A stretch of 48,745 nt of DNA from a virus, in IMG/VR virus record IMGVR_UViG_3300036046_000008. One strand, written 5' to 3'. The translations under genes and the position numbers were made by a program. Shown one piece after another: positions 26,340-48,745 of the stretch. Numbering within the stretch: the first letter of the stretch is position 1; each line of letters opens with the position of its first letter. The notes under the pieces are model-generated. The model did not search any database. It was given only the letters and a program-made list of their open reading frames with translations, and was not told where the DNA came from.

Positions 26340-26364
26340 TCTCTACTCTCCTATCGTCTGTTCT

Positions 26365-27024: not shown

Positions 27025-27035
27025 TTCTATTCCTC

Positions 27036-27350: not shown

Positions 27351-27648
27351 CTCCGAGCCTAAGAAGAAGGCGGGGGCTTTGAACTTCGACCTCTGTCACA
27401 GTCCACTTAGCCCCCGCCCACTCCACGTAACGGATGGCAAAGAAGTGTTCAAATGCGTAAGGATCGGCAAGAATACTAATCGAGTTCGTTACCGAAATAT
27501 CATTGTTGAGGTATTGGCCCACGTCAGACCGTTTCACATTTCGAACAACGTCTCCAAAATATAGCCGCTCAACAATCTGATCTACCCAAACGCCGGGGGC
27601 CGTCTGGACGTTTTGCCCGTAACCGACAACCCCAGAAAACTTTGCCAT
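27325..27648 (-). CDS. head-tail connector-like protein
   Basis: 107 aa, immediately after capsid gene; GAGGAG RBS. Confidence 0.5.
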   Translation of the reverse strand: MAKFSGVVGYGQNVQTAPGVWVDQIVERLYFGDVVRNVKRSDVGQYLNNDISVTNSISILADPYAFEHFFAIRYVEWAGAKWTVTEVEVQSPRLLLRLGGVYNGPTA

Positions 27649-27669
27649 CTCAGCTCCTCAAAATATAAA

Positions 27670-29625: not shown

Positions 29626-29702
29626 TTTGACTGTCTCCTTCCTGGTTAGTGTCAACGGCCTGGAGTGCCGTTTCGGATTTGATAAGACTCATTAGAACCC
29701 CT

Positions 29703-30278: not shown

Positions 30279-30284
30279 GACAGT

Positions 30285-31577: not shown

Positions 31578-31616
31578 TCTTCACCTCCCTTCCTTACAAC
31601 CGCCGTCTACCCTGGA

Positions 31617-32489: not shown

Positions 32490-33195
32490 TACCTGACGAA
32501 GCCGACCAGGTGACACTAGCAGCGGGAATTGTTCCGGCAGAGGAAATAGGCGCCTGCGCGGCAACCGCATGGGCGCTCGATCCAGACGACGCGGCAAGAG
32601 CCTGATTTATTAAGGTGTGACCGGCTGGCAGAGTAACGGACGTCGACTTATTGTCTTTGCGAACCCAAAGTCTAACCAACAGCCCTTCGCCGTCGGCCGT
32701 GACCGCTGGGGCGGGCGCTACCGTGTTCGTATCTGGCTGGTTTTGGGTAGATCGAACAAACGACGTCAGGTTACGCACAGCCACGCAAACGTGGCTACAT
32801 TTTCGACTAGCAGAAAGAGACCAAGACGGCATCTCAAGGCCGTCAAAATATGTTGCTACATAAAGCGCTCTTTGGGTGGTCCCCTGGTTTGAAAGCAAAT
32901 TATCCTCAGTCCAATCCGAATGGTCGGACGTTACGGTCACACCACCCGAAGAATCAGATACTGACATCCCGCACACCAACCAGTCTCCATCCTGCAGACC
33001 GGAAGGAAGATCGGGGGTATAAGATGTTAAAAAGTTTGTGGCAGACGCAGACGAGCCTACAACGATAGGCTCGGTAGGAGGCTCCGGCTCTTCGCCGCTC
33101 TCATAAATAAGATTAGTCCCCACATAAGCCTTTAGAAGAGGAGAAGTTCCCGCGTACATTGCGGTCACACTCGAACTACCAGCACGAACAGTCAT
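32458..33195 (-). CDS. hypothetical Ser/Thr-rich protein
   Basis: 245 aa; ATGA overlap with terminase stop. Confidence 0.5.
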   Translation of the reverse strand: MTVRAGSSSVTAMYAGTSPLLKAYVGTNLIYESGEEPEPPTEPIVVGSSASATNFLTSYTPDLPSGLQDGDWLVCGMSVSDSSGGVTVTSDHSDWTEDNLLSNQGTTQRALYVATYFDGLEMPSWSLSASRKCSHVCVAVRNLTSFVRSTQNQPDTNTVAPAPAVTADGEGLLVRLWVRKDNKSTSVTLPAGHTLINQALAASSGSSAHAVAAQAPISSAGTIPAASVTWSASSGNGTGWSIAIA

Positions 33196-34937: not shown

Positions 34938-34947
34938 TGGTCACCAC

Positions 34948-35358
34948 CTAACCCTTTTTTTTCTGCAACGCCGCTTCTACCTGCGCGTTGAGAGCTTTTG
35001 TTCCCTGCGCAGTGACAACACCCTTAAGAATTTGCTTCCCTGAGTCGAGTGTGATCTCACGCACAAATTTTTGCCCCTCTTTTTTAAATCGACTTCCCCG
35101 GGAAGCACTACGATCAGCTGCCCTCCCAACAAGCTCATTATAAGTTCGTTCTAGCTGGAGACGACGATTAAACGCTTCCAATTCTTTGTTTGAGAGCGGG
35201 TCGGTACTCCCACGATTACGACGAATTTTGTCTGTTGTAGCTTTAACCGCAACTACATCAGGTGAATCGGAGTCGATTTGGGCACGAGTTCGACGAACGC
35301 CCCACTTCATACCTTTGATGCCGTAGTGAGCCAGAATATCAGAATCAGCCATTGTCAC
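34948..35358 (-). CDS. hypothetical protein with N-terminal AHYGIKGMKWG motif (terminase small subunit position)
   Basis: 136 aa immediately upstream of terminase large subunit; motif shared with 31617..32489 and the N-terminus of 44540..47221. Confidence 0.45.
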   Translation of the reverse strand: MTMADSDILAHYGIKGMKWGVRRTRAQIDSDSPDVVAVKATTDKIRRNRGSTDPLSNKELEAFNRRLQLERTYNELVGRAADRSASRGSRFKKEGQKFVREITLDSGKQILKGVVTAQGTKALNAQVEAALQKKKG

Positions 35359-35974
35359 TCCTTGCTGGTCGCCAAAGAAAAGTCACAATTACGGCCCGAT
35401 GGTCGGCGTTTCGGGGTTTATGCGTCTGGGTTTGAATTGGAAACCATCGCCCCGTTTTAACAGCTCCAACGTAGTCAATCGATTGGCCCTTTGGGCCGGA
35501 AGGAACGGGTTTGGACCAGCGACCCAAAGGCGACAGATGGCGCAGACGGGGCGCGCCGATTTTCCCGTTAAAATCTCCGCCTAAGATCCGATCAGAATTG
35601 CCTTCGAACCATCGAGCGACTTTCAGTTCCTGTTTATCGTATTCAATCCGATTGCGTGGTTTTCTGTTATAAAAAGCAGGCAAATGGACCGCCCCGATTC
35701 GAGCATGTCGGTTCGCCTTCAAAAAATGCTGCCAGATCAGCCAACGCTCACTGTAAAACGTTGGCGATGAAAGTCTAAAGTAACCATTATAAATAGCATT
35801 AATCCTGCGCGGGTCCCAATAGAGCACGTTGCTACGGGCCGGCGCAGGACGGAAGTATCGGCAACCATCCGGAACATTTCTTGCCGGGTCCCGATCCGTA
35901 TTTTCTTGCCCCAGCACAACATCGCAACGGTATTTTTCAAAAAGAATCTTATAATCGTGTGCGTGCGGCATCAA
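35345..35974 (-). CDS. endonuclease/exonuclease/phosphatase (EEP) family protein
   Basis: 209 aa; LGQENTD, GGDFNG and ADHRAV motifs in EEP order. Confidence 0.5.
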   Translation of the reverse strand: MMPHAHDYKILFEKYRCDVVLGQENTDRDPARNVPDGCRYFRPAPARSNVLYWDPRRINAIYNGYFRLSSPTFYSERWLIWQHFLKANRHARIGAVHLPAFYNRKPRNRIEYDKQELKVARWFEGNSDRILGGDFNGKIGAPRLRHLSPLGRWSKPVPSGPKGQSIDYVGAVKTGRWFPIQTQTHKPRNADHRAVIVTFLWRPARSDNG

Positions 35975-36045
35975 CCGATGCGCACTGTTAAACGTGGCGA
36001 CAATTAGTTTAGGGGGCGGACTTTCGCCCGGTTCTCCGCCCCCGT

Positions 36046-36270
36046 CTAAGGGCGTTCAATGCAATCGCCGACATCAAGATTGTTAGGATCCAAACCAGGA
36101 TTTGCTTCCTTGATTTGATCAACGGTCACTCCCCACTCTTTGCTCAAGGACCAAAGCGTATCGCCTTTCTTGACCACATGCCCATCGCACGCCTCAGGAG
36201 TGACGTCTTCAATCGCGTCCGCAGTATCCCGAAGACCCTGAAGGAGAGCTCTCCATCGGGCATTACTCAT
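36046..36270 (-). CDS. LysM domain protein
   Basis: 74 aa; VVKKGDTLWSLSKEWGVTVDQIKEANPGL LysM-like block. Confidence 0.6.
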   Translation of the reverse strand: MSNARWRALLQGLRDTADAIEDVTPEACDGHVVKKGDTLWSLSKEWGVTVDQIKEANPGLDPNNLDVGDCIERP

Positions 36271-36309
36271 AGTACACAGTCTCCTTTGTTTGGACGGACG
36301 ACAAGATTA

Positions 36310-37131
36310 TTAGCCATCTTCTTCCATTTTGACCAGCTTGGCTTCAAGACGTTGAACCGTCTTCTCGATCTGCCGCAACCGCGCGTTCCCCATCATCGGA
36401 CTTGGATTGTTGGGGTCTCTCTTCTCGCCCTTAGCATTGTAGTCTCCTAGGGTCCGATTAATTCTTGCCGCAATAGCTTCAATGTCTTTCTCACTGAGAG
36501 CCACGTCTGTTTCGCCTCCTTCTTCCGAATTCCCTTGAGCAAGTCTGAGAACCTGGGGTAGATTCAACGCGCCAGTGTCCCAGTGCGAATTCTCTGGAAC
36601 CGAGGCATGCGGCAAATGGCCGCGAAAGGCTTTATAGGCTTGACCGGACAACCTCTGAGGCGCGCTCAGCCCATACCTGGGGTTGCGAGTAAACTTTGGT
36701 ACGAGAGCCAGAGGAATCCCCCAATGTTTATTCAACCAGAGCGCAATGCGAGCCAGAAACGCTAGGTGCTTCTCAGTGAAGTCTCCGACCCAAAGTCCTC
36801 GGTAACGATCGGACAGAACACGATCCGAAAACGAAATGACCTCAATCTGAAAAGCACGATCCGTGTTAGTCTCCACGCCGCCTGGCAGATTTGCCAAGGC
36901 GCGAGAAGACATATTAGCCGGGAAATGTTGACGAATCTGTTCAGTACGAGGATCAATGGTGATAGTTGGAGCGGTAGAGCCCCCAGAATAGCCCGGCCAG
37001 GAAGTACCCTCTGTCGTATGCCAGACACACTTGTACAACGCGTCCGACCAGACGACGCCGCGGTACTTATTCGCATACCACTGCGAAGACCGGTCTGCTC
37101 CAGGCAAATAGAGTTCAGTCATCGGCTTCAC
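36310..37131 (-). CDS. putative endolysin (amidase-like peptidoglycan hydrolase) with C-terminal coiled coil
   Basis: 273 aa; WHTTEG and NSHWDTG blocks; adjacent to LysM gene. Confidence 0.45.
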   Translation of the reverse strand: MKPMTELYLPGADRSSQWYANKYRGVVWSDALYKCVWHTTEGTSWPGYSGGSTAPTITIDPRTEQIRQHFPANMSSRALANLPGGVETNTDRAFQIEVISFSDRVLSDRYRGLWVGDFTEKHLAFLARIALWLNKHWGIPLALVPKFTRNPRYGLSAPQRLSGQAYKAFRGHLPHASVPENSHWDTGALNLPQVLRLAQGNSEEGGETDVALSEKDIEAIAARINRTLGDYNAKGEKRDPNNPSPMMGNARLRQIEKTVQRLEAKLVKMEEDG

Positions 37132-37315
37132 TCGCTTCGTCGAGTACGTCAGAGTCGACGGTCAGATCACTGTAATCCTCGTCCTCGACCGCCATATAGG
37201 CGTACTCCTTGTCGGAGAGTTCACGATCCGCATGAGCAGACGCAGACTCGAACGCGATTGGCTCATCTTCGATCACGGCGAACACCTCAATCTGTTGTAG
37301 GGAGGGAGAGGCCAT
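37115..37315 (-). CDS. small acidic protein
   Basis: Track ORF 66 aa, very acidic. Confidence 0.3.
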   Translation of the reverse strand: MASPSLQQIEVFAVIEDEPIAFESASAHADRELSDKEYAYMAVEDEDYSDLTVDSDVLDEASEADD

Positions 37316-37568
37316 ACGGCCAATTTTCGGACTGATTGACCCTTATTGAATCCATTATCACCTTAACCTCATGGTCAAATATCTGCAACCACACTAACGA
37401 CACAGCACAAACAAGACTAAGAACCAATGCCGAGACTAGGATTAAAGAAGCATCAGTAACAAGATGATGACCACCAGGATCAAAGTCATCACGCCAATAA
37501 AATCCGAACGCACCGATCTCACCTCCAGCCGTAGACGACGATCTACCCATACTTATGCTAACCCCCAA
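37287..37568 (-). CDS. membrane protein (holin candidate by position)
   Basis: Track ORF 93 aa with one long hydrophobic helix; just upstream of the amidase-like gene. Confidence 0.3.
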   Translation of the reverse strand: MGVSISMGRSSSTAGGEIGAFGFYWRDDFDPGGHHLVTDASLILVSALVLSLVCAVSLVWLQIFDHEVKVIMDSIRVNQSENWPYGLSLPTTD

Positions 37569-38710
37569 GTATTAGCCTTGGCGGCTTGTACCACATAGTT
37601 CCAAGACCACGACAAACGGAGCCGACCATCCGTAAACTGCGCGTAATCGGCTGCACCATCGTTACGTAGCATCAAGCTGGAAAAAGAGCCATCGCCAAGG
37701 CGTTGCCCATTAGCGTCGGAGATGTTGTACCACTTACCGTTCCCACCAGACGTGGAGGTTCTGGAGACGGAGTTCTGTCCACCAGGCTCTGGTCCTCCGG
37801 CGTCCGAATTCGAGACATGGATATTCGTTGTTACCGTTCCACTTGTACCAACGCCCGCCTTCTTGAACAAATATACCTCAGCGCTCGTGCAAGATCCTTT
37901 TAACTGACGATCCACACCGTTCGTGCCGAGACGATCGCGTAAGGCTCCGCGGACACCGTTACTACCATAGAAAATAACACCCTTATAGTTTCCGTAGGCG
38001 GCTGTGAAATAACCCTGTGCCGCGATGTTTGCTAGCCAAGACCAGCCATCAACTGGACGCCAAGAATCGACTTTACTCGGCTCAAAGACCATGTCCTGTC
38101 GGCTACCTTGATCGCGCTCCTCAGACCGCCCCGAATAGTAGGTGTAAATAGAACTGTTCAGCCCAAGAATCCCATTTCGGAACGGTCGGACATAAATATT
38201 GATAGATGTGTCTTCAGAAGTCGACACAGCTTTGCTGGTGCCGGTCTGAGTGCCAATAACAACGTTGTTCCGGCGAATTTCATAATGCGTCGCGCCAGGA
38301 ACGACGGCCCAAGACACGGTCACATTCGTCAGCGTTCTGGAAGAGGCTGAAAGCGCGCCAACTTTCCCTTTGGGAATTACCGCATTAATACTTACTGGCG
38401 ACTCAGTCCCAGGGACGCCAAATATGATCGGCGTAACCCGGTATGAGTAAGACGCACCCCAATCTAACCCGGAATCATTGTAAATGCGGCCGACTTGAGT
38501 CGCGATAAGCTCACCATTTCTACGAAGCTCATACAACTCAGCGTTAACCACTTCGTCCCAAGACACAGACAGTGTGCCCGCCGAAGACACCGAACTAATC
38601 TTGGGTTGCCCACCTTCGGCGAGGGGCCAAACTAGATCCTGCCCAAGCGCCACGAATAAGATTTGTTGCTCGCCGAGCTTGACATCGTCCGCAGTATTGA
38701 GAAGAGGCAT
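37553..38710 (-). CDS. minor tail protein with two fibronectin-III-like repeats
   Basis: 385 aa; repeated SVSWDEVVNAELYELRRNGELIATQ / VSWAVVPGATHYEIRRNNVVIGTQ blocks. Confidence 0.5.
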   Translation of the reverse strand: MPLLNTADDVKLGEQQILFVALGQDLVWPLAEGGQPKISSVSSAGTLSVSWDEVVNAELYELRRNGELIATQVGRIYNDSGLDWGASYSYRVTPIIFGVPGTESPVSINAVIPKGKVGALSASSRTLTNVTVSWAVVPGATHYEIRRNNVVIGTQTGTSKAVSTSEDTSINIYVRPFRNGILGLNSSIYTYYSGRSEERDQGSRQDMVFEPSKVDSWRPVDGWSWLANIAAQGYFTAAYGNYKGVIFYGSNGVRGALRDRLGTNGVDRQLKGSCTSAEVYLFKKAGVGTSGTVTTNIHVSNSDAGGPEPGGQNSVSRTSTSGGNGKWYNISDANGQRLGDGSFSSLMLRNDGAADYAQFTDGRLRLSWSWNYVVQAAKANTWGLA

Positions 38711-38713
38711 GAG

Positions 38714-39220
38714 TCACCCCACAACGACATAAAGCGTATCAGGATCTTTAGTAACAATCGCGTCATACTCGGCAAGGGTCCCGCTCCACCATTGGCCTGC
38801 CTCACCTTGAGGCCCCTGCTCACCTTGAGGCCCCTGCTCACCTTGAGGCCCCTGCTCACCTTGAGGCCCCTGCATCGGCCCGATGTTGACCCAATCAGAA
38901 CCATCCCAAATATAACCGTTGTTGGTGTCTTCGGTAATGTACAAATCGTTCAGATCAGCGCTAACCGGCAAATTTGCAAACGATGGCACAACTCCTACAA
39001 TAGTAACGCCCTCTCCACGAGGCCCAGGCGGACCGACAGGACCTTGGATGCCCTGAGGACCAGTCGCCAACGCTTCGCCGAGCTCTGAGAAGGGCGTAAT
39101 TCCATCCCCAATATAAAAAACTCTAAGATCGGTAACGAACCCGATCTCACCGTCTAGCAAGATAGGATTTGAGTTGAGCCATTCGCTTTCAGTTCCTCGC
39201 CGAATTCGAATTACATACAT
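38714..39220 (-). CDS. tail fibre protein with collagen-like (GPQGEQ)x4 repeat
   Basis: Track ORF trimmed to ATG with AAGGAG RBS; N- and C-termini paralogous to 40245..41804. Confidence 0.6.
   Translation of the reverse strand: MYVIRIRRGTESEWLNSNPILLDGEIGFVTDLRVFYIGDGITPFSELGEALATGPQGIQGPVGPPGPRGEGVTIVGVVPSFANLPVSADLNDLYITEDTNNGYIWDGSDWVNIGPMQGPQGEQGPQGEQGPQGEQGPQGEAGQWWSGTLAEYDAIVTKDPDTLYVVVG
38801..38872. repeat. Perfect tandem repeat, 18 bp x 4 (CTCACCTTGAGGCCCCTG)
   Basis: Seen in sequence; encodes GPQGEQ collagen-like triplets in 38714..39220. Confidence 0.9.
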
Positions 39221-39240
39221 CAAACGCTCCTTACCCGTAG

Positions 39241-40224
39241 CTACTTGGAGAGCCACGCACAATCGGAAGAAGCCAGCGACTTAAGAAATTCCCGCGTCCG
39301 TGGTTCACCATCAGCCAGATACCAATTAACGCCCGGACGGTTATTCCGCGTCGAATTAAACCAAGCCACAGTCATAAATCGTTTGGAAGCCACGATAACC
39401 GACCAAGTAGAAACCCATTCGTCAGCAGTATGCGTACCAGTTTCGCCGAAACCAAACAAACCAGCGTACCGAGCCCGCTCTGCCCACTTCAGAATTCGGC
39501 CCACGCGGTTTGCGGGCCCATCTTTGGGGTCGCTAAGGGTGCCGCCGTGATAGACGTCCATTCCTAAAAGCTTCCAGCGCTCCAACAAATCTTGGGGGAA
39601 CCATTCAGCAATCTCAGTGTCAGTCCACGTGTCATGCGCGCCCCAAGGAAATCCATTCATGATAGGGCACAACGTTACTTGGCCAGTGCCACCAAGCCGA
39701 TCCGCAACATCCAGAAGACGCCGCCAGGTACGTGTATAGTGATCATACGTCATGTCGCCCACGGGCTCATGCGCCCACGTGATCAATGCCGGTTGAGACC
39801 ATGTCTGGTACTCCAAAACCCGACGCTCAAAATCAGCGTCAGTAAAATTAAGGCCCGAAAACGATCCCCACGGCAACGAGCCCCGTGCCCACGCCGTCTG
39901 CGCCACTGACCGTTCTTTTTCAAGCTCGGTCGGCTTACAATAATAACGCTGCACACCAGGCAAGCCTAGACGAGCAACTTCATCTTCGTAAGTAGGCAGA
40001 GGGTGGGCCCATCCGAGATAAATCTTGCTCGGCTGATGACCCGGGATCACCCCTTCGGAAGGCTCGCCGTCACCGGGATCGGAACCGCCGTCTTCGTCAG
40101 GCTCGTCTAGACGGGCAAGTACTTCCATTTTGAAGTCCAAAAACTGCTTTTCAAAATTCTCTTGCTGCGCCTTTGCGCTGGCCTTATACTCTTCAAACTC
40201 AGCCGAGGTCGGGACTTCAACCAC
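39241..40224 (-). CDS. tail-associated protein, possible glycoside hydrolase-like domain
   Basis: 327 aa, Trp-rich; between two fibre genes; function is a guess. Confidence 0.35.
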   Translation of the reverse strand: MVEVPTSAEFEEYKASAKAQQENFEKQFLDFKMEVLARLDEPDEDGGSDPGDGEPSEGVIPGHQPSKIYLGWAHPLPTYEDEVARLGLPGVQRYYCKPTELEKERSVAQTAWARGSLPWGSFSGLNFTDADFERRVLEYQTWSQPALITWAHEPVGDMTYDHYTRTWRRLLDVADRLGGTGQVTLCPIMNGFPWGAHDTWTDTEIAEWFPQDLLERWKLLGMDVYHGGTLSDPKDGPANRVGRILKWAERARYAGLFGFGETGTHTADEWVSTWSVIVASKRFMTVAWFNSTRNNRPGVNWYLADGEPRTREFLKSLASSDCAWLSK

Positions 40225-40244
40225 AACGATCTCCTTTGACGGGG

Positions 40245-41804
40245 CTAGACGATTGCATACAATGTGTTTGGATCTTTAGTGCCAATTGCATCATAAGCGG
40301 CCTGGGACCCTACCCATTGACGCCAAACCGTCTGGCCATCTTCTTTAATGCGGCCACCAACGAGATTCACGTCGTTAGCTGGAGTAAGCTGCAAATCCCC
40401 GCCAGTTAACTGCTCGACAACCGTCTGGTCAGCCTCTGTAGAATTTCGAATCTCCAAAGTGCTGCCCACGGTACGAATGCCTTTGTTGAAGTTAACTCGC
40501 CCAAGAACCCCAATCCGCATTTGAACAGCGCCAGCGAGATTCAAAACTTCGAGCATGTTGCCGGAGCCGCCCTCGGCTTGATCCCGAGCAATGATCTTCA
40601 TAGCCACTTCACCAGGAGCGGCGTCATTCGACGTCCTAAGGTTCCCCTTCTCGTTGACCCACGTCGCTCGTTTACCCCCGTACCGAATGTCCACAATGTC
40701 AGCGTCGGTAATGGTGGTGGACGTCGCCGTCCGCTCAACCACCAAACCGCCTACATCTTTACTCGAATTGATGATTGTCATCTTGCGGCGCAGCGTCGTT
40801 CCGTTTAGGCCCACACCCATAATAATGTCCCCAACATTACGGGCCTCGCGGACCTCAAAGAAGTCACCCAGAGAAGCTGGTGTCGACCCACTCTTGAACC
40901 CATGCACACGCAAAGCCACAGTGCTATCTTTGGCCGGATCGAACCTGCCTTCGCCGAACTCATTAAATCCACCAGTGCGGACACCATCGTACTTGAAATG
41001 CAACCGATCAGGCCAGTTCGCAGCCGGCGACGCATCGTTCACAATATTGAACTGTGCAACCTGCATGTTCGTGGGGTCGGTAATGGCATAATCCGCGTCA
41101 GTCTTGGGGCGCTGTTGCCACAAATATCGAGCGTTAGCGGTGCCCTCAGTGATACCGCTGCCGCCAACCAGAATAGCCCAGGCCCCGTTCTGTCTTACAT
41201 ACTGTTGGCCATCATTAGGAGCCTCCTCGACTGCGTCGTCTGGGGCGACTGTTACAGCCCAAGTCCCGTTTTGCCGCACGTATTGCGATCCATTACTTGG
41301 GGCGTCTCTCAAATATTGCGTATGAGGATTGGTGGCAGCGGTGTGCTGCGACAGCAAAGTCGACGCCACGCCGACGTTCTCTTTCCCGGCCAGAGCAGTA
41401 TTAAAAACCGCGCCGTCGGCAACGGACAAATATCGCTCATCAATATCCAGCCAGAAATTGTTATACCGCGCATAGATGGTGCCATCGGCGGGGGCATCGG
41501 TAATTCCAGCCCCTCCCCCACCGACTACGGCAGTCCAGGTCCCATCTCGCCGAGCGTATTGTTCGCCATCCAGGGGTGCTTCTTCAACAGGTCCTGGCGG
41601 GCCAACCGGTCCGTCTTCACCGGGAGGACCAGGAATCCCTGTAGTATAAGGGAGCTCAGTCCAAGGAGTAACCCCATCACCGATCTTGAACTGATTAAGA
41701 TCTGTGACATATGCAGGTTCACCGGAACTGAGAATTGGGTTAGCCAGAGTCCACTGTGCATCGGTGCCCCGGCGAAGACGAATAGTGAAAGGTTGAATTG
41801 TCAT
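40245..41804 (-). CDS. tail fibre protein with short collagen-like segment and triple DG.QYVRQNG.WA repeats
   Basis: 519 aa; GIPGPPGEDGPVGPPGP; three internal repeats; termini paralogous to 38714..39220. Confidence 0.6.
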   Translation of the reverse strand: MTIQPFTIRLRRGTDAQWTLANPILSSGEPAYVTDLNQFKIGDGVTPWTELPYTTGIPGPPGEDGPVGPPGPVEEAPLDGEQYARRDGTWTAVVGGGGAGITDAPADGTIYARYNNFWLDIDERYLSVADGAVFNTALAGKENVGVASTLLSQHTAATNPHTQYLRDAPSNGSQYVRQNGTWAVTVAPDDAVEEAPNDGQQYVRQNGAWAILVGGSGITEGTANARYLWQQRPKTDADYAITDPTNMQVAQFNIVNDASPAANWPDRLHFKYDGVRTGGFNEFGEGRFDPAKDSTVALRVHGFKSGSTPASLGDFFEVREARNVGDIIMGVGLNGTTLRRKMTIINSSKDVGGLVVERTATSTTITDADIVDIRYGGKRATWVNEKGNLRTSNDAAPGEVAMKIIARDQAEGGSGNMLEVLNLAGAVQMRIGVLGRVNFNKGIRTVGSTLEIRNSTEADQTVVEQLTGGDLQLTPANDVNLVGGRIKEDGQTVWRQWVGSQAAYDAIGTKDPNTLYAIV

Positions 41805-41813
41805 GAGCTTCTC

Positions 41814-42206
41814 CTAGGGGCTGCCGCCGTCGATCAGCACAGTGTCAAACGGGAGGGGTGGACTCCAAGCATTGCCCTCGCGATAAACGTTTAGGCGCCA
41901 TTCCATCTCTCGGAGCTGGTCCTCAAGCGCATTGATGAGGAACGACGTATTCGGAGGATCGAAAAGTAGACGCACGCGAAGATAGACGTAAGACTTAACC
42001 GGATTGAGCATCTGAGAATTGCCCAGAAGCTCTTCCCAAGTCGTTTCGGGCCCTTCGACAGAGAACCCCTCTGCAGGGCCGATCCCCAACTGACTTACGT
42101 ACATCAACGCCGAATTAATGTGCGTCATAATGTCTAAGTCGAAGACGGTGTACTCCTCGGCAAGACCAAGAATCTTCTTTGTACTGGTCAAGATACTGTC
42201 AGTCAT
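41814..42206 (-). CDS. hypothetical protein
   Basis: Track ORF 130 aa. Confidence 0.5.
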   Translation of the reverse strand: MTDSILTSTKKILGLAEEYTVFDLDIMTHINSALMYVSQLGIGPAEGFSVEGPETTWEELLGNSQMLNPVKSYVYLRVRLLFDPPNTSFLINALEDQLREMEWRLNVYREGNAWSPPLPFDTVLIDGGSP

Positions 42207-42245
42207 TGGGGCGAACCTCCTTAAAAGCTTCCATTTTGATTGGTG

Positions 42246-42653
42246 CTACCAAAGCTTAGTATCATTAGGACGGCGGGGAACATAGGGTTTCGGGAGTAAA
42301 TTCCGATCGCCGTAATGGATTGCGTTATGAGTATCATGAGTCGTAGTGATCAAGAACTCCGGATCCAAAACCTCGTCCCGTCCGTGAACTAAATCTTCGA
42401 CAGTGACTGGGTTCATATGATGAATGTAAGCACGCTCATAAATCTCATACCCGACGACACCAAGATCACAACCCAGATCTCTTGCAATGACGTGGGTCCG
42501 AAGTGCTCGCCATTGAGCCGACATGTAGAAGCGTTGATTCAACCAACGATCGTGTCCGAACGTAGACAACCCAACAGATCCACGCAGAACCAAATAGTCA
42601 AATCTATCTTCAAACTGACTCATCTGAATCAGCTCGGTATAACGTCTAACCAT
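42246..42653 (-). CDS. HNH endonuclease
   Basis: IHHMNP ... HDTHNAIHYG HNH-like motif; track ORF 42246..42710 trimmed to ATG with GAGG RBS. Confidence 0.55.
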   Translation of the reverse strand: MVRRYTELIQMSQFEDRFDYLVLRGSVGLSTFGHDRWLNQRFYMSAQWRALRTHVIARDLGCDLGVVGYEIYERAYIHHMNPVTVEDLVHGRDEVLDPEFLITTTHDTHNAIHYGDRNLLPKPYVPRRPNDTKLW

Positions 42654-42975
42654 TGTATGCCTCGTCAGTGTGACCGGAATACGACCGCATAGCGTCGAGA
42701 ACGCTTTCATAGAGCTCTTCTACTCGCTTGGCCGACTCCAACAACTCCGTCTTAGAATCTAGCAACTTGTTCTCACGGGCCAGCTTTTCCTGTTCCAAGG
42801 CTTCACGAGTGGACCCAAGACGCAGATAGTGAGTAATCACTTGCGCGGTGGCAGTACCATCTCGGAGCTGCTTCTCAGCGAGATTAGTAGCTAACAACAC
42901 GAGGCGCTGCTCTTGTTCTTCAGGAGTCCGTGCCGGCGGGCGCCGCGGTTCCGACTCCTTGCGGCGTTGCGCCAT
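42646..42975 (-). CDS. hypothetical protein (charged, coiled-coil)
   Basis: Track ORF 109 aa. Confidence 0.45.
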   Translation of the reverse strand: MAQRRKESEPRRPPARTPEEQEQRLVLLATNLAEKQLRDGTATAQVITHYLRLGSTREALEQEKLARENKLLDSKTELLESAKRVEELYESVLDAMRSYSGHTDEAYNG

Positions 42976-42987
42976 AACAACTCCTTT

Positions 42988-43422
42988 CTATCCTTTGTGG
43001 CGACGGAGTGTCTTTCGTCCCCCATGCTCAATGTGCATCGAGGTCGCCACCAAACCGCCGGTCAGAATTAGAAGCAAGACCACGACTTCGCCGACGCCAT
43101 CGATCAAGTTAGTTTCGAGCCCTGAGAAGAATAAGATGATGGTTAAGATCGCTCCGAAAACCATCATCAGATAGGCCCAACGAGTCACAACGACAAAGCG
43201 ATTAAAACTATGGCCCCACATAAATACCAATGCAACCACCGACAACGTACCCACGAAATACTCAAGAGTCCGTTCGGCGGAGCCTACGATAAAAAACGTT
43301 GGCGAGAAACCAAACACGATCAACGCAAGGTTGTAAGCCGTCAGAGAACACACAGCGGTCCAAAAAGCTTGCTCACGGCCAAACAAAGCAAAGAAACGCT
43401 GCTCAATCGGTTTTGGAGTCAT
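42988..43422 (-). CDS. multi-pass membrane protein (paralog of 43597..44046)
   Basis: Track ORF 42988..43590 trimmed to ATG with GAGAAGGAAAG RBS; shares WAYL block. Confidence 0.45.
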   Translation of the reverse strand: MTPKPIEQRFFALFGREQAFWTAVCSLTAYNLALIVFGFSPTFFIVGSAERTLEYFVGTLSVVALVFMWGHSFNRFVVVTRWAYLMMVFGAILTIILFFSGLETNLIDGVGEVVVLLLILTGGLVATSMHIEHGGRKTLRRHKG

Positions 43423-43594
43423 CTTTCCTTCTCTCTGGCAAGGGATGTTTGGCCTCCCAAAGATCCATTCGATGTTTGATCCACCTGCGTAGAGTCTCGA
43501 TGAGAATCGTAACCAACCCAGCCAACGCAAAGTAGAGAAGAGCCAAAGGATCCGTTCCTGAAGGCGGTGCCTGAAAAAACAGTAAAACAACCAT
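43403..43594 (-). CDS. small membrane protein
   Basis: Track ORF 63 aa; ATG after GGAGG RBS; TM helix then charged tail. Confidence 0.4.
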   Translation of the reverse strand: MVVLLFFQAPPSGTDPLALLYFALAGLVTILIETLRRWIKHRMDLWEAKHPLPERRKDDSKTD

Positions 43595-43596
43595 GG

Positions 43597-44046
43597 CTAC
43601 CTCCGCCTGAGATAGCGATCAAGTTGAGAAGAAAGAGGACGACCAGCGCCACCGTCTAGCAAGTGCGCTCCTGCCGCCCCGACAATGCCGATACAAATTG
43701 TAAAACCAATTACAATTTTAGCGTTAGGCGGGACAATGACCTGAGTAGGTGCAACTATCAGGAACGCCACAAGGACAGTAAGCCCATAACCCACAACAAA
43801 GAGATAGGCCCACTGGTTCAGAAAAATATAGGGGCGCTCCAACAAACGGCCTATGAGAAGAATCGTAAGAACCACGCCAACAACCGCAAACACGATTTCG
43901 ATGGACGTCAACGTGTTAACTTCCGGTTCGAGCCCGGGCAATGGTCTAAAAATAGGAAGAAGCACAAACAAGATCAGAGTGATCTGATAGATAACAAGGT
44001 CCGCAATGATAGCTATGACCGTTGTTACGTCTCTACGGAGTTTCAA
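43597..44046 (-). CDS. multi-pass membrane protein
   Basis: 149 aa, 3-4 hydrophobic helices; TTG start after TAAGGAGGGG. Confidence 0.5.
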   Translation of the reverse strand: MKLRRDVTTVIAIIADLVIYQITLILFVLLPIFRPLPGLEPEVNTLTSIEIVFAVVGVVLTILLIGRLLERPYIFLNQWAYLFVVGYGLTVLVAFLIVAPTQVIVPPNAKIVIGFTICIGIVGAAGAHLLDGGAGRPLSSQLDRYLRRR

Positions 44047-44267
44047 GGAGCCCCTCCTTAAAAGTTTTGAGGCACTTCGACAGGGGTTTTACACACTTTC
44101 TACGACCAAAAATCAACTTTTAAGGACCGTCAAGTCTGCGAAGAAAGCTTTTGGCATAGTTTGGCCCCACTTTTACCCCCTCAAACGACCCGCCGGAGAA
44201 ATTTTAGGGACGCGGCGATATGGAGGGGGTCTCGGTTTTGGCGGGCCCTCCCCCCTATTTTAATTTT

Positions 44268-44531
44268 TTAATTCGTTGTTTGCGACGAGGAGTAAACTTT
44301 TCGGTATTTACCTAAAAGGTTGTAGGTCACAATCTCGTCAATAGCTTGCTGTACTGCTTCTTTCTGTTGTTCTTCTGAAAGTTCGAAGGAAACTCTCGCG
44401 ACTCGAGCCAGCAGGCTAAGAGTGTGGTACCCCGATCGACGATCAAAAGCTTCCCACTCTTTGAAGTGGGTGAAAGGATTCCACGGATTGTCAGTAGTAG
44501 TTAACATCGCGTAAGTGTTATCACTCATCAC
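44268..44531 (-). CDS. hypothetical protein
   Basis: Track ORF 87 aa; GTG start, TAGGAGAA RBS. Confidence 0.55.
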   Translation of the reverse strand: MMSDNTYAMLTTTDNPWNPFTHFKEWEAFDRRSGYHTLSLLARVARVSFELSEEQQKEAVQQAIDEIVTYNLLGKYRKVYSSSQTTN

Positions 44532-44539
44532 TCGTTCTC

Positions 44540-47221
44540 CTAAGCGAGACTAGTCTTAAGAGTGGTGAGACTTACCCCAATAGCGTCAGCCACTTCTGCC
44601 TGAGTGTAGCCCTGCTTAAGCAAAGCCTTAGCCTGAGAGGTCTTCGTAGAAGTCATCAAAAGAGATGTACGTGGAGTGGCCAATTCCTTTACCTTCTTTG
44701 CATCGGAGTTCCTTAGAATTGATTCGAGCTTACTAGTTGTGATAGCGCCTGCTTGAATCGCTTCCCATTCCTTAGGCGAGATGTCGATACGAGCTTTCCC
44801 TGCACCAGTCCTAGCTCTCGCCTCGACCAACGCCATACCATCGATCTTCTTCTTCTCCTCCCGAGTCATGTCGGGATTGTCGCGCCGTTTTGCAGCCCGG
44901 ATAGCATTGGCTACAATTTGAGCCTGGCGTTCTCGAGGGGCGTTCTTCTCAGCCAGGTTAAGCTTGGCATCCAGCGACTTAACTTCTTTCTCATACACCT
45001 TCTTAGCTGAGGGAGAATAGGGAATGTTTTTGACCGCAAGACTTTCTTTCCTAGCCCGATTCGCAAGCGCTTTCATCCGATTGGAGTAAGTCGCATACTC
45101 AGTCTCAATTCGCGTCCCCGCAGACAGCGTAAATGCGTCGTCGGTTTCCGCAAGCTTCTCGCTTCGTTGTGTCTTCGAGACGACTTTACCAGTCTTGTCG
45201 ACGTAGGTACGGCCAGTGTACTCATACACTTTACGTCCTGTGGCGGGATCAATCGGGCCACCTTTAGACATACGCCGCGGCTGGCGTTCGGGAACATCAA
45301 CGCGAGAACCTGCAAGAGAGATCAACGTGGATGCGCCTTTATCGGATCGCCCCAGATACTTCTCTTTTAGAGCAGGGATTCCGTTGTCTAGATACGATTG
45401 TTTGTAATTCAGATTGTGTTTCTCAGCATCGATAACAACCATGGAATGTTTAACAGCTCTAGCAATTTCCGTTTGTGTTGCGCCCATGATAGTCATGTCA
45501 GTAATCAGATTTGAGATGGAACCCATCTCCATCTGTTTACGATCACTGCGCATCGTCGGCATACCCTCATAGGCGGGATACTCTCTGATGGGATCGAAGT
45601 TCTGCAACGCCTTCAGAGGCGGAGAGGTTTTGACTTGCCCTCGATCGTTCGGAATGACAATGACCGTATCCCCATCAAAGTCTGCACCAGACAAACGCTT
45701 AGCTACCTCAGCGTTGATACCAATCGCGTCTGGGGCGTTACCCAACAGTTTCTTTGTTGCCGGGTCCCGATTGTTAACTACCAACTCAGGAATCTCAAAC
45801 GTCCCACCGTGAGGGTGCCGGACTAGCACCACACGTTCGCCATTACGATACGTAGGAGCATACACCTCAGTAGGCTTCATCGAATTCGACGGAATAAGAA
45901 CTTTAGTAGACTGCCTTGGCATGGCGGCCGCAGCAAGATGTACGGCGGCGGCGTCGGCCTCATCACCGAACTTCCGCAACAGGTCGCGCTTGATGACAGG
46001 ATTTGTCAACGACATAATCTCATCGAGCGCAGTTTCGTTTTTATTGTAGAGAAAATCAAGCTGCTGCCTGGCAAGCTTTACATCCTGCTTAGAAAGAAAC
46101 TGAGATGACAACTGTCGGTTCCAAGTGTCCCAGGTTCCTTCTTCATAGATGAGGTTCATAGCAGATGTAACTTTTGGCTTGCCATCCGCACCCAGCGAGA
46201 TGATTTGGCGATTAATGGATGAACCGAATGGGTTGTCCATGTCAATCTCACCCGTCTTGCCGACGGTCTTCATAGGCTTCATAGCGTCAAGCTTATTGCC
46301 CGTACTCGACTTATTAGTATTAAAAACCAAGTCGACGCCGGCAGGCAGATCATCTTTGTAGACAGCCATCCCTTTGAGAAAGTGCGTCCCATCAACAGCA
46401 ACCCGGACCTGCGCGTAATTACCTCCACCAAGTGACAAATCAGCCACGCCCGGGCGCACAAAGATCACACCATCGGCATCGGCGCCGCCATCTTCTGCGT
46501 AATTAATTCCAATTCGCTTTGAATCCACCGACAATGGAGGAAGAAGGCCAAGGTTTGTGCGACCTCCATCATCAGAGAACTCATTGATCTGACGTAGATT
46601 CGCACGGTTTGCCCACGCTTCCTTCTGCGTTACCGACTCAGGAACCAGTACTTTATACTCGGTCAACAAGCCAGTTCCAACCTGCTCAATCTTGAACGAC
46701 CGAGTTGCATAACCTTCCTCGGAAAGCATTGCAACGGCCGCCGCAAGCTTTTCCTTACTGATACCCAACTGACGCTCGACGCCGGTACCAATATCGATCA
46801 TACCTTTTTCGTCAACGTTTGACTTCAACACGTCTGCAATGTTGCGCAACTGCTGAGTCTTATCAAGCTGGCCGGCTTTTAACAGCTCTCTAACAGAACT
46901 CTCATTGATACCCAACCGCTCCCCGATGACCGTATTCGCGGCGCCTTTTGCTTTGAGGCGCTGCGCAAACGTAATATCAGCCGCTCTTGCTTCCGCCTTA
47001 GCAATCGACTTCAGCGCCCGAAGTTCTTTAGTCGTGAGACCAACGCCTTCCGCAACCTGAGCTTCTGTCATCCCTTGCTTCTGCATTGACGATACGTAAT
47101 CCAAAAAAGATTTACTACGATTTGCGACGTTGCCGCCGGAGCCCCAAGGATAACGACCAGAACGACGAAGAATGCCGTAATGCTGAAGGGAATTGGTCTC
47201 ATCTTCCGTAATAACGAACAA
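44540..47221 (-). CDS. Non-canonical RNA polymerase-like protein (multisubunit-RNAP beta-prime-like double-psi beta-barrel motifs, YonO-like) with N- and C-terminal HTH-like segments
   Basis: 893 aa; VRHPHGGTFEIPELVV ... GADFDGDTVIVIP at aa 466-523 resembles beta-prime R.P..H..FEP...NADFDGD; GRSDKGAST at aa 624-632 resembles beta GRHGNKGVIS; HTH-like segments at aa 50-115 and 865-893; TTG start with GAGAGGAGA RBS. Confidence 0.55.
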   Translation of the reverse strand: MFVITEDETNSLQHYGILRRSGRYPWGSGGNVANRSKSFLDYVSSMQKQGMTEAQVAEGVGLTTKELRALKSIAKAEARAADITFAQRLKAKGAANTVIGERLGINESSVRELLKAGQLDKTQQLRNIADVLKSNVDEKGMIDIGTGVERQLGISKEKLAAAVAMLSEEGYATRSFKIEQVGTGLLTEYKVLVPESVTQKEAWANRANLRQINEFSDDGGRTNLGLLPPLSVDSKRIGINYAEDGGADADGVIFVRPGVADLSLGGGNYAQVRVAVDGTHFLKGMAVYKDDLPAGVDLVFNTNKSSTGNKLDAMKPMKTVGKTGEIDMDNPFGSSINRQIISLGADGKPKVTSAMNLIYEEGTWDTWNRQLSSQFLSKQDVKLARQQLDFLYNKNETALDEIMSLTNPVIKRDLLRKFGDEADAAAVHLAAAAMPRQSTKVLIPSNSMKPTEVYAPTYRNGERVVLVRHPHGGTFEIPELVVNNRDPATKKLLGNAPDAIGINAEVAKRLSGADFDGDTVIVIPNDRGQVKTSPPLKALQNFDPIREYPAYEGMPTMRSDRKQMEMGSISNLITDMTIMGATQTEIARAVKHSMVVIDAEKHNLNYKQSYLDNGIPALKEKYLGRSDKGASTLISLAGSRVDVPERQPRRMSKGGPIDPATGRKVYEYTGRTYVDKTGKVVSKTQRSEKLAETDDAFTLSAGTRIETEYATYSNRMKALANRARKESLAVKNIPYSPSAKKVYEKEVKSLDAKLNLAEKNAPRERQAQIVANAIRAAKRRDNPDMTREEKKKIDGMALVEARARTGAGKARIDISPKEWEAIQAGAITTSKLESILRNSDAKKVKELATPRTSLLMTSTKTSQAKALLKQGYTQAEVADAIGVSLTTLKTSLA

Positions 47222-47235: not shown

Positions 47236-47796
47236 TCAGGATCGGGCTTCTTCCTTAATGGATTCGATGCGCTTGTCAAAAGTGATAATCCGATCCATGA
47301 CGTGAAAGATAACGTCAGCATCAGGATGGTGTACACGCACCTCATTGTTCTGGTAGATCCGCAGCTCAGTTTCAAAGTCTACGGGGTTCATCTTATATTC
47401 AAGGCAGAAGAGGCCCACGTAAATCTCGAGTTGATGATACGAGGCGGGAACCGTCCCAGTCTTCAAATCATGGACACGAAGGACATTACGTCGAAAAGAA
47501 ATACAGTCCGCGTGCCCAAACGCATTATCCGAGTAATATAGTGGTTGCTCAGGCGTCATGCGGTAGCCGATTCCGTCGTTCACGTAACTGTTCAATGAAC
47601 CGGAAGTATCCGGAAGTCTAACGCCGAGACGGATCGCTTGATGCGCAAAACTATGCAACTCTGTTCCACGTTTCGCAGCTTGCGAAGCCAAGAACGCCCG
47701 GTCAAGTTTCTCGTCCGAGTAGTTTAACCAGTGGTACCGGCTCGGACTTAAAAACGCATGCTGATCCCTAATGCGTGAATGCATATTGAAGATCAT
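47236..47796 (-). CDS. PD-(D/E)xK nuclease (RecB/Cas4/YqaJ-like)
   Basis: 186 aa; GHADCISF ... VHDLKTG ... YHQLEIY motif order. Confidence 0.45.
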   Translation of the reverse strand: MIFNMHSRIRDQHAFLSPSRYHWLNYSDEKLDRAFLASQAAKRGTELHSFAHQAIRLGVRLPDTSGSLNSYVNDGIGYRMTPEQPLYYSDNAFGHADCISFRRNVLRVHDLKTGTVPASYHQLEIYVGLFCLEYKMNPVDFETELRIYQNNEVRVHHPDADVIFHVMDRIITFDKRIESIKEEARS

Positions 47797-48064
47797 TCAA
47801 AACCTCTTCTTCATTCTCGGGAGAGATAAAAGCCGCAAACGACATCTGGCCGAGCATCTGGACGTAGTATGCTTGATTAGGACGACGACGAGAATTTAAG
47901 GATGACTTAACCTCAAGCATCGCCCATCGTGACCCAAACAAAACCAAAAGATCAGGCAACCCCTGACGGTTTTGCGGATCGTTCTTAATCACAACGCAAC
48001 CAGGAAACATTTGCTTGAGCGCGTCAACGACGTGGCGTTGAAAGCGCGACTCACGAACAGCCAT
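47768..48064 (-). CDS. VRR-NUC-like PD-(D/E)xK nuclease
   Basis: 98 aa; GLPDLLVLFG ... AMLEVKS. Confidence 0.45.
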   Translation of the reverse strand: MAVRESRFQRHVVDALKQMFPGCVVIKNDPQNRQGLPDLLVLFGSRWAMLEVKSSLNSRRRPNQAYYVQMLGQMSFAAFISPENEEEVLNDLQYAFTH

Positions 48065-48152: not shown

Positions 48153-48689
48153 TTATATGCTTTTTTGGTCAGATCGCGCGAAGAACGCAAAACGGTAAGA
48201 AGTTGGGAACGCCGGCTCGCCTTCTTGAATAGACGCAAAAAGATCATGAAGGAGGATCCCGTAGAACATGCACGTGATCCAAGCGTTCCCCACAACCTCG
48301 TTCGTGTCCAAGTTGATCACTTGTTTACGTCGCACCCACGAATATGGCCAGAACGTATATAGACCAAGACGATGACCTTGATGGTGGTACTTCATCGCGA
48401 ACCATCGAGGGCGCCAAGACAAATTATCGACATGCGAGTTCGATAGGTCGTAATCGTGATGTATGACACTATCAAAGTATTCGGACGGCGGGGGATCTAA
48501 GAAAGCGCGTGCCACAAGAAACGCAACCGGGCAAATGCGTCGCTCACCGTTGACATACAAACCCACATAGTAACGACCCTGTTGGTTTGAGCAAGGACGG
48601 AGCAGTCGATCTGTGTCGAGATTGACTACCGCCCCAAAAGCATCCACAGCGTATCTGGGGACTTCGGGGATCCTTCGAAAACCGGTCAA
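48153..48689 (-). CDS. HNH homing endonuclease (NUMOD4-like N-terminus)
   Basis: 178 aa; IPEVPRYAVDAFGAVVN and HHDYDLSNSHVDNL; TTG start after GAGGAGG RBS; 5' end lies inside the terminal duplication. Confidence 0.6.
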   Translation of the reverse strand: MTGFRRIPEVPRYAVDAFGAVVNLDTDRLLRPCSNQQGRYYVGLYVNGERRICPVAFLVARAFLDPPPSEYFDSVIHHDYDLSNSHVDNLSWRPRWFAMKYHHQGHRLGLYTFWPYSWVRRKQVINLDTNEVVGNAWITCMFYGILLHDLFASIQEGEPAFPTSYRFAFFARSDQKSI

Positions 48690-48745
48690 CGAACCTCCTC
48701 GATCGGATGGAAATTAACGGTTTTGTAGGGTCGGGAAAAAGGGTC

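Follow-up and report, generated by a model that had tools for sequence, protein, structure and literature searches.

A single-chain two-barrel RNA polymerase candidate with helix-turn-helix modules in a phage genome and its association with a promoter-like element

RESULTS

The 893-amino-acid open reading frame and its catalytic motifs

The window analyzed here, the whole 48,745-nucleotide (nt) stretch of the IMG/VR virus record IMGVR_UViG_3300036046_000008, represents a complete phage genome that assembled as a circle of about 48.6 kb and is permuted relative to its cos-ended relatives; circular closure follows from an exact 127-nt terminal direct repeat (1..127 = 48619..48745). The minus strand carries all of its genes, among them an open reading frame (ORF) of 893 amino acids (aa) for a predicted RNA polymerase (RNAP), which is the subject of this study together with a short, repeated, promoter-like element. 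The ORF opens with a TTG start codon, a GGAGA Shine-Dalgarno sequence lies 8 nt upstream, and the N terminus of the product aligns with those of its homologs. The gene and the regions assigned within it are as follows.

44540..47221, minus strand: gene for the single-chain two-barrel RNAP, 893 aa (phage 1706 orf75 / PHROG_4291 family)
47135..47188, minus strand: conserved N-terminal peptide, aa 12-29, LQHYGILRRSGRYPWGSG, predicted disordered, with invariant H14, G16, S21, G22, R23, and P25
46877..47074, minus strand: two N-terminal helix-turn-helix (HTH) modules, aa 50-72 (GMTEAQVAEGVGLTTKELRALKS; GMTEAQVAEGVGLTTKEL) and aa 93-115 (GAANTVIGERLGINESSVRELLK; GAANTVIGERLGINESSVREL), from phrog_664, Pfam, and the model
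46307..46513, minus strand: putative beta-subunit-like double-psi beta-barrel (DPBB-B), aa ~237-305, with D250, R273, and K283, from invariance and model strands
45647..45910, minus strand: beta-prime-like double-psi beta-barrel (DPBB-A), aa ~438-525, with R468-x-P470 and the D514-F-D-G-D518 metal loop, from invariance, PF05183, and hhalign
45416..45547, minus strand: two long bridge-helix-like helices, aa 559-602 (H559-579 and H583-602), from the model and conservation
44546..44650, minus strand: C-terminal HTH, aa ~858-892 (more narrowly aa 871-892), GYTQAEVADAIGVSLTTLKTSL, like the HTHs of sigma-70 region 4, LuxR, and resolvases, from Pfam

The original prediction, made from the letters of this DNA, was that the ORF encodes a noncanonical RNAP of the double-psi beta-barrel type related to YonO, QDE-1, and the crAss-type enzymes, and both fold and motifs support it. 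At 45668..45682 the minus strand reads exactly GAC TTT GAT GGG GAT, which confirms the pentapeptide DFDGD, expected by chance 0.00025 times per protein of this composition. The two blocks first recognized as a beta-prime signature, VRHPHGGTFEIPELVV (aa 467-482; 45776..45823) and GADFDGDTVIVIP (aa 512-524; 45650..45688), proved to be the R-x-P and DxDGD blocks of the beta-prime-like barrel, and R468, P470, and D514-F-D-G-D518 are invariant in 36 homologs, of actinobacterial type and Firmicute-phage type, and in six phage proteins. Within the same set, D250-G, R273, and K283-G of DPBB-B are invariant as well, about 200 residues upstream of DFDGD, in a region where the model has beta-strands at 252-255, 269-276, 280-288, and 298-301. 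Eight residues common to all two-barrel polymerases have been defined by Ruprich-Robert and Thuriaux, with D709, R738, and K743 of QDE-1 and D837, K979, and K987 of Rpb2 in the beta-like barrel, and R962, P964, and D1007/1009/1011 of QDE-1 in the beta-prime-like barrel (PMC2919709). In the family studied here, all eight active-site residues, the three aspartates included, are invariant across lineages that are only ~40% identical overall, and the core is the best-conserved and most confidently modeled portion of the protein.

Two details of the original prediction did not survive. The segment GRSDKGAST (aa 624-632; 45326..45352) had been likened to the lysine motif of the beta subunit, but K628 is not conserved, the family consensus being KYQGxxxxGASTLIS, and in phage 1706 an insertion of ~100 residues, which the window protein lacks, interrupts this site after the bridge-like helices. 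The order of the barrels had been read as beta-prime-like followed by beta-like; because the conserved D250/R273/K283 block, with its basic residues, lies upstream of DFDGD, the order appears to be beta-like and then beta-prime-like, as in QDE-1 and YonO. Downstream of both barrels, aa 559-602 hold the conserved stretches MGxISNLITDM and VVIDAEKH, with invariant M566, G567, N571, D575, H592, D598, and K601, and these helices are collinear with IGEYSNNIT and IDFAK of YonO.

Fold and family membership

An AlphaFold2 model built from 45 homologs reached a predicted local distance difference test score (pLDDT) of 78.7 and a predicted template modeling score (pTM) of 0.61. The original prediction had staked itself on a double-psi beta-barrel fold, and that fold is present in the predicted structure, because the best 22 Foldseek matches in the PDB are exclusively single-chain two-barrel polymerases: QDE-1 (E = 4.2e-9), P23-45 gp64 / P74-26 gp62 (E of ~2e-7), and RDR2 (E = 8e-6) are among them. 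The window RNAP and the solved two-barrel polymerases thus have a catalytic-core fold in common, and Foldseek against BFVD returned phage proteins of the same kind as the window RNAP. Sequence searches of the PDB, run with both the RNAP and its family profile, matched HTHs only and gave no match to the core.

Within phages, membership is unambiguous. Residues 4-892 match positions 4-905 of the 909 in the profile of PHROG_4291, 'RNA-dependent RNA polymerase' (E = 0, 1280 bits), and BLASTP aligns the protein over its full length with phage 1706 orf75 at 37% identity (E = 3e-177). By tblastn, full-length homologs with 37-58% identity occur in 250 phage genomes, including those of Arthrobacter (95), Gordonia (55), Streptomyces (54), Lactococcus (13), Siphovirus (12), Rhodococcus (4), and Microbacterium (4) phages and others. 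In nearly all of the records listed, the gene sits close to the right end of the genome; in the permuted BitterVaud1 genome it lies at 1229-3994. A collection of 5.8 billion protein sequences holds at least 8,000 clusters of the family at 90% identity, the nearest among the matches listed being 69% identical. The homologs are annotated as 'HTH DNA-binding domain protein' or as 'RNA-dependent RNA polymerase', the family name in PHROGs and RefSeq, and the 'structural protein' JGI names on a few of them are automatic. Pfam places its RNA-dependent RNA polymerase (RdRP) family PF05183 on aa 505-608 of the window protein (E = 0.006) and on 31 of the 36 homologs at E<=1, with a best E of 4.3e-5.

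For comparison with YonO, family profiles were aligned by hhalign with the single YonO sequence and with a 26-sequence YonO family profile. A relaxed alignment (-mact 0.05) yields a collinear map that is not significant (E = 0.025) and is to be read as a map, not as proof.

D250, R273, and K283 of the window RNAP: D249, R266, and K271 of YonO, respectively (relaxed, low-confidence hhalign)
R468xPH and DFDGD: R492xPH (R492, P494) and DNDGD (D535-D539) (hhalign)
MGSISNLIT and IDAEK: IGEYSNNIT and IDFAK (relaxed hhalign)

Fold and collinear motifs carry the relationship, which makes this a sister family of YonO and not its ortholog. The protein itself adds a member to a known family, a previously described kind of small phage RNAP, and the novelty implied by the original prediction was overstated: the family is already in PHROGs and RefSeq, and it appears in two publications (PMC2919709; bioRxiv 10.1101/842583). 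The phage 1706 protein was listed in 2010 among five YonO-like families (PMC2919709). Koert et al. in 2021 described the family as a 'signature' of an actinophage supercluster and of Lactococcus and Faecalibacterium phages, noted that it carries terminal HTH domains and a DxDGD motif and that HHpred matches it to PF05183 (95.7%), and named it 'HTH domain protein / putative RNA polymerase' (10.1101/842583).

Helix-turn-helix modules

HTH-like segments had been noticed at both termini, and Pfam and PHROG matches together with helices in the model bear this out. The profile phrog_664, 'DNA binding protein', covers aa 43-128 (E = 2.4e-10), with weak Pfam matches to HTH_31, HTH_17, and GerE; both N-terminal modules are helical in the model and conserved in six phages. 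The C-terminal module matches HTH_7 (E = 4.8e-5), HTH_23, and Sigma70_r4_2 (E = 0.009; 16.1 bits against a gathering cutoff of 25.7) and is nearly invariant in the six phages, from the window to Lactococcus phage P092. Sigma70_r4_2 matches 36 of 36 homologs, with a best E of 7.4e-8, and the generic families HTH_23 and HTH_7 score better; by its sequence the module is best described as a sigma-4-like HTH rather than a proven sigma domain. The three modules are of one type and closely similar. The conserved peptide at aa 12-29 falls within a segment (aa 1-29) with a pLDDT of <50. Its resemblance to the DUF7211 motif suggested a capsid-targeting tag and was set aside as resemblance only, Pfam scoring DUF7211 in 0 of 36 homologs.

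The promoter-like element in the window

The genome is divided into two arms.

44046 down to 17834, minus strand: structural arm, with TerL, portal, protease-capsid, and tape measure genes (PHROG scans)
17824 down to 192, minus strand: nonstructural arm, with small genes, primase-polymerase, single-strand annealing protein, and helicase (PHROG scans)

Repeat finding recovered an element of ~37 nt, TCGCGA-N4-TT(G/A)CAT-N4-TATAAT-GAGACCCCCTAC, in ~10 copies on the coding strand of the nonstructural arm only. A strict regular expression missed most copies, and every copy in BitterVaud1, and unbiased repeat finding was used instead. The consensus in the window is TCGCGAAAATTGCATGCnGTATAATGAGACCCCCTAC, followed by GAAAGGA and ATG; copies are nearly identical over ~35 nt, and each lies 25-35 nt upstream of a Shine-Dalgarno sequence and ATG. 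The 18-mer TATAATGAGACCCCCTAC occurs eight times on the coding strand at <=3 mismatches, against 0.01 expected.

17584..17630, minus strand: copy 1
17129..17175, minus strand: copy 2
16909..16955, minus strand: copy 3
16650..16696, minus strand: copy 4
14882..14920, minus strand: copy 5, TATAGT variant
13524..13570, minus strand: copy 6, TCGCGAAAATTGCATGCCGTATAATGAGACCCCCTAC followed by GAAAGGAAG and ATG; includes the conserved stretch first noticed at 13534..13570
4660..4698, minus strand: copy 7
2414..2460, minus strand: copy 8, hexamer at 2436-2441, with a hairpin and T-run directly after
2360..2406, minus strand: copy 9, partial, conserved in the downstream half only
786..832, minus strand: copy 10, the last before the HNH / VRR-NUC / exonuclease / RNAP block

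The TTRCAY box, which resembles a -35 hexamer, is only 4-5 nt from the TATAAT hexamer. At the 16-18 nt spacing, a -35-like hexamer is absent from 8 of the 10 window copies, and a TG extension is present in none of the 10. Strong terminator-like hairpins followed by a T-run are located between the element copies, and the nonstructural (right) arm has 30 terminator-like sites, against 17±4 expected. The structural arm (17834..44046, ~26 kb) has tightly packed genes, zero copies of the element, and no excess of promoters or terminators; scans for sigma-70-type promoters and terminators around the RNAP gene and the cos region likewise gave no excess and no candidate late promoter. A 12-nt candidate near cos, GAGACCCCCTCC, matches the downstream half of the element at 11 of 12 positions and was rejected as within chance (~0.2 expected by estimate).

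Among ~40 window ORFs scanned against PHROGs, no sigma factor, no second RNAP, and, in agreement with the original prediction, no other RNAP subunit was found, and the same scans of the window found no other conserved DNA-binding protein.

The element in other phages

All seven polymerase-bearing genomes examined, the window included, have homologous elements, placed in the corresponding arm with the same orientation; the genomes span two host phyla. Between genomes the element drifts, for example between TATAAT and TATAGT.

Scap1 (Streptomyces): TCGCAAGTTTTACATGCnT TATAGT GAGACCCCTAC
Conley (Gordonia): TCGCAnnAATTACAyGyCC TATAAT GAGACCCCTAy
Mudcat (Arthrobacter): CGCGTAAATTACACGGGC TATAAT GAGAAC
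BitterVaud1 (Bifidobacterium): TCGCGAnnAAAACATCGCT TATAAT GAA
P092 (Lactococcus): TTTAAGTTTTACATACCC TATAAT GAAAGGA
1706 (Lactococcus): TCCACAAGTTTTACATAyAC TATAGT AGAAAGA

When the 43-nt element consensus was compared by blastn, with E values to 10 allowed, with 50,697 phage records, it matched 1,077 places in 214 records. All genera matched carry the polymerase, and no phage group outside the polymerase-carrying genera was matched in this search. The matches listed are all on the plus strand, the gene strand of the relatives fetched, and mostly intergenic. The numbers of records matched by the element, set against the numbers matched by the polymerase in the tblastn search, are as follows.

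Gordonia: 55/55
Streptomyces: 54/54
Siphovirus contig89: 12/12
Rhodococcus: 4/4
Microbacterium: 4/4
Arthrobacter: 76/95
Lactococcus: 8/13

Genomics papers on the Arthrobacter and Rhodococcus phages make no mention of the polymerase or the element. The helix of the second HTH module reads (N/S)ESSVR where the element has a TCGC or TCCAC box (actinophages and 1706) and SPGSVT where it has TTTAAG (P092); this pairing is a small hint of covariation in a sample too small for a test.

DISCUSSION

A proposed HTH-guided polymerase and its candidate promoter

When these observations are placed together, it is likely, judging from sequence and model, that the ORF encodes a DNA-dependent single-chain two-barrel RNAP, belonging to the phage-1706 branch of the YonO-like enzymes, whose HTH modules read the element. 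Residues and fold are directly evident, and from them we infer catalysis. In such an enzyme the two double-psi beta-barrels would face each other, the upstream one supplying D250, R273, and K283 and the downstream one R468, P470, and the Mg-binding D514/D516/D518, and the fused modules, of sigma-region-4 / LuxR / resolvase type, would give the RNAP a promoter specificity of its own.

The ~37-nt element, which heads ~10 short transcription units of the nonstructural arm, is on balance favored as the cognate promoter of this RNAP, because its copies barely differ inside one genome and drift from one genome to the next, because its geometry is not that of sigma-70 promoters, and because the polymerase is the sole conserved DNA-reading protein. 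Promoters of the T7 group are likewise near-identical within a genome and drift between genomes, unlike degenerate host promoters. More tentatively, and with real doubt, it could be proposed that the RNAP is self-sufficient and sigma independent, that its HTH modules directly read the TCGC box, the TTRCAY box, the TATAAT-like melting hexamer, and the GAGA start, and that polymerase and element have coevolved as a pair portable across Actinobacteria and Firmicutes.

It can be speculated, by analogy with T7, that the phage RNAP is first produced through transcription by the host RNAP, then initiates at promoters of its own, and possibly continues past the joined cos site into the structural arm, which is devoid of promoters. 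Such a cascade is plausible because the RNAP gene adjoins the cos end expected to enter the cell first; by analogy with lambda-like siphophages, this should be the right cos end. As candidate starts for the host RNAP, a TTGGGA-17-TATAAT site precedes orf75 in 1706 and a 390-nt AT-rich region precedes the gene block in the window.

Several points weigh against this interpretation. The pTM of the model is only 0.61, and the position of D250, R273, and K283 near the DFDGD metal loop, which they would face, is presumptive. The PF05183 score of the window protein, 15.7 bits, is below the gathering threshold of 23.8, and hhalign relates the family to YonO with a probability of 0.5-3% (E of 0.014-0.11), which is not significant. 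All element-bearing phages have shared ancestry, and co-occurrence alone is no proof of recognition. The element carries a perfect host-type -10 hexamer, and the putative terminators appear interleaved with the elements as in host-transcribed early regions. The RNAP gene is distal in the arm that the enzyme would transcribe, so that the cycle has to be started by another polymerase or by a copy carried in the virion, and the 1706 record marks orf62 and orf71, not orf75, as structural, which speaks weakly against virion delivery of the kind represented by N4 vRNAP, crAss gp66, and P23-45 gp96. The searchable literature yielded no experimental or activity data on any member of the family.

Alternative readings

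The main alternative is a division of labor like that of YonO, which we regard as unlikely: the elements would be early promoters of host sigma-A, recognized by their -10 alone and perhaps by a phage regulator bound to the upstream boxes, and the RNAP would transcribe the structural late arm from another site or by read-through of cos. The perfect TATAAT/TATAGT hexamer followed by GA(G/A)A, the enrichment of terminator-like hairpins in the right arm (30 versus 17±4), and a structural arm (17834..44046) that lacks the element and any excess of promoters or terminators would all fit, and the arrangement resembles host-takeover early modules. YonO itself transcribes only the late operon of SPbeta (PMC5467207). 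The bootstrapping problem would also be removed. Yet the -35-like hexamer at 16-18 nt is missing from 8 of 10 copies and the TG extension from all of them, and hexamer-only sites in Lactococcus should be poor sigma-A promoters. Moreover, ~30 nt outside the hexamer are conserved across two host phyla and across phage genomes of very different G+C content (Mudcat has 45%, its host 63%), the element matched only genera that carry the RNAP (blastn of the 50,697 records), and the cos region yielded no candidate late promoter.

That the RNAP makes something other than mRNA, either primers or activating transcripts at an origin near its gene or RNA copied from RNA, we consider improbable. Its gene ends a replication and recombination module, after helicase, HNH, VRR-NUC, and Cas4-like exonuclease genes; iteron-like repeats lie at ~100-460, just upstream of this gene block, with similar ones upstream of 1706 orf75; and QDE-1, the closest solved fold, is both RNA and DNA dependent (PMC9508822). 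Against this, the phage already encodes a 1233-aa primase-polymerase, three HTH modules of sequence-specific type and ~10 gene-proximal elements fit transcription better, the characterized phage relatives YonO and P23-45 gp64 transcribe DNA, and an RdRP role would lack its RNA-silencing context. It is scarcely credible that the protein is only a DNA-binding regulator with a catalytically dead, polymerase-like relic as its core: most deposited annotations and precomputed Pfam matches do list HTH families only, but the eight active-site residues are invariant across lineages ~40% identical overall, and it is this core that is best conserved and most confidently modeled.

Comparison with known systems

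The closest counterparts are the PHROG_4291 proteins 1706 orf75, Scap1 gp55, and Mudcat gp94, which are homologous over their full length (37% identity with 1706 and 55-58% with the actinophages) and have the same domain order (HTH-HTH, barrel B, barrel A, helices, HTH), the same genomic position as last large gene, and a homologous element; they differ by sequence divergence only. T7-group phages are similar in having many near-identical promoters of 20-40 nt that drift between phages and a polymerase gene near the genome end expected first in, but T7 RNAP has an unrelated Pol-I-like right-hand fold and its promoter is read by a specificity loop and an AT-rich recognition loop, not by an HTH.

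YonO is, like the window RNAP, a phage-encoded single chain of ~100 kDa with the same motif order and spacing (D-G...R...KG; RxPH; DxDGD; (I/M)GxISNxIT; IDxxK), but it has a C-terminal Cys4 cluster (invariant C799, C802, C816, and C819) and no terminal HTH modules. It has been shown experimentally to be a processive DNA-dependent RNAP for the SPbeta late genes, and it serves one late promoter (PMC5467207). QDE-1 and the cellular RdRPs (PF05183; PDB 2J7N, 7Y7P) are eukaryotic RNA-silencing enzymes that act on RNA or single-stranded DNA and are without HTH modules. The nonvirion RNAP P23-45 gp64 / P74-26 gp62 (PDB 8F72, 8F5M) is ~600 aa long, has no fused HTH, and is made from transcripts of a virion RNAP fused to the tape measure (PMC10770324); PHROG scans of the window detected no such second polymerase.

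Significance

New here are the corrected domain map and the tight, cross-phylum association of the RNAP with a defined promoter-like element. All cellular RNAPs are two-barrel polymerases, and the minimal single-chain relatives, of which YonO, P23-45 gp64, and crAss gp66 are characterized, serve as models of the ancestral enzyme. The family described here is very abundant, with ~250 isolated phages, many from the SEA-PHAGES program. Because it combines evident DNA-reading modules with a sharply delimited candidate promoter, the question of how a minimal two-barrel polymerase finds its promoter can now be tested with a single purified protein and one 40-bp duplex. If the promoter is indeed read by the HTH modules, this would be the first two-barrel polymerase with promoter and recognition module both readable from sequence. 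A portable polymerase-promoter unit would explain large differences in G+C content between these phages and their hosts, and should the pair function in different phyla, it could be used for compact orthogonal expression in Gram-positive bacteria.

OTHER FEATURES OF THE GENOME

By megablast, the window has no DNA similarity to any phage except for a 230-bp stretch of the polymerase gene. The neighbors of that gene are as follows.

47768..48064, minus strand: VRR-NUC-type endonuclease, upstream neighbor
47236..47796, minus strand: Cas4-like exonuclease, upstream neighbor (phrog_93 / phrog_3953 for the pair)
44268..44531, minus strand: small 87-aa gene downstream (phrog_4303), the last before the probable cos

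The order HNH, VRR-NUC, Cas4-like exonuclease, polymerase, small phrog_4303 gene is conserved in Scap1, Mudcat, Conley, P092, and 1706, where the small gene is represented by gp56, gp95, gp90, gp76, and orf76, respectively; in these linear relatives the polymerase is the final large gene before the right cos end. The 221-nt gap at 44047..44267 contains the cos-like ATATCGCCGCGTCCCT, to be compared with the right end of Scap1, which finishes ...GCATCGCCGCCCT. On the minus strand at ~44195..44235, a probable cos site reads ...GAGACCCCCTCCATATCGCCGCGTCCCT / AAAATTTCTCCGGCGGG (the slash marking the junction), much as the Scap1 ends read ...CTGCATCGCCGCCCT / CTATATTTTTGCCCCGCGGG. The primase-polymerase of the window phage is a 1233-aa fusion (phrog_4210 and primase PHROGs).

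Between a terminator at 462-495 and the HNH/nuclease/polymerase block lies an AT-rich noncoding region of ~390 nt (100..460, minus strand). It holds ~9 copies of (G)GTCGGGAAAA / CGGGAAAA (GGTCGGGAAAA) in both orientations, the sole such cluster in the genome, and could be a replication origin or a regulatory region. Similar ACTTCGGGAAAACTTCGGGATT repeats occur in phage 1706 (L009 3639..4046), in a 450-nt gap directly upstream of orf75, and Scap1 has different iterons, TTGTCAAA, at the equivalent place.

The hairpin and T-run after element copy 8 are built from the element's own conserved downstream half (ACCCCCTACATGGGGGT ACAGTTTTGT), and partial copy 9 lies 54 nt downstream; the arrangement at 2360..2460 could be an attenuator or a tandem promoter. 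A family of related hairpins flanked by A-runs and T-runs, AAAACTAAAG-stem-loop-stem-CTTTAGTTTT, follows short genes of the nonstructural arm at these places.

13201..13243
14576..14616
16429..16459
16707..16750
16963..16996
17228..17270
462..495
2894..2927

Mudcat, Scap1, Conley, and 1706 have analogous families, and the hairpins have the look of intrinsic terminators that coevolved with the promoter units.

In the head module, a small ORF on either side of the large terminase gene opens with the Pfam DUF7211 motif LAHYG(I/V)KGM(K/R)WGVR(R/K).

34948..35358, minus strand: DUF7211-motif ORF, E = 1.5e-12
Within 31617..32597, motif at 31941..31976, minus strand: DUF7211-motif ORF, E = 1.6e-19

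The motif recurs at the N termini of otherwise unrelated PHROGs, is present in Scap1 gp06 and two BitterVaud1 ORFs, and might be a shared targeting or docking tag; our search found no literature on DUF7211. In ORF 38714..39262 (minus strand), four exact tandem 18-nt units at 38801..38872, recovered as three overlapping 36-nt matches, read CTCACCTTGAGGCCCCTG on the plus strand and CAGGGGCCTCAAGGTGAG on the coding strand; in the frame that gives QGPQGE they would encode Gly-X-Y repeats like those of collagen; ORFs nearby, such as 40245..41804, match tail-fiber families. The nonstructural arm also has a paralogous pair of phrog_2152, of unknown function, at 15329..16117 and 11547..12581 (both minus strand; E = 8e-78 and 1.5e-75). 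Finally, a 28-nt repeat, CACAGCGTATCTGGGGACTTCGGGGATC, occurs at 27..54 / 48645..48672 and, 82% identical, at 2305..2332, one site lying inside the 5' end of the HNH gene (48153..48689) and the other in ORF 2126..2746.

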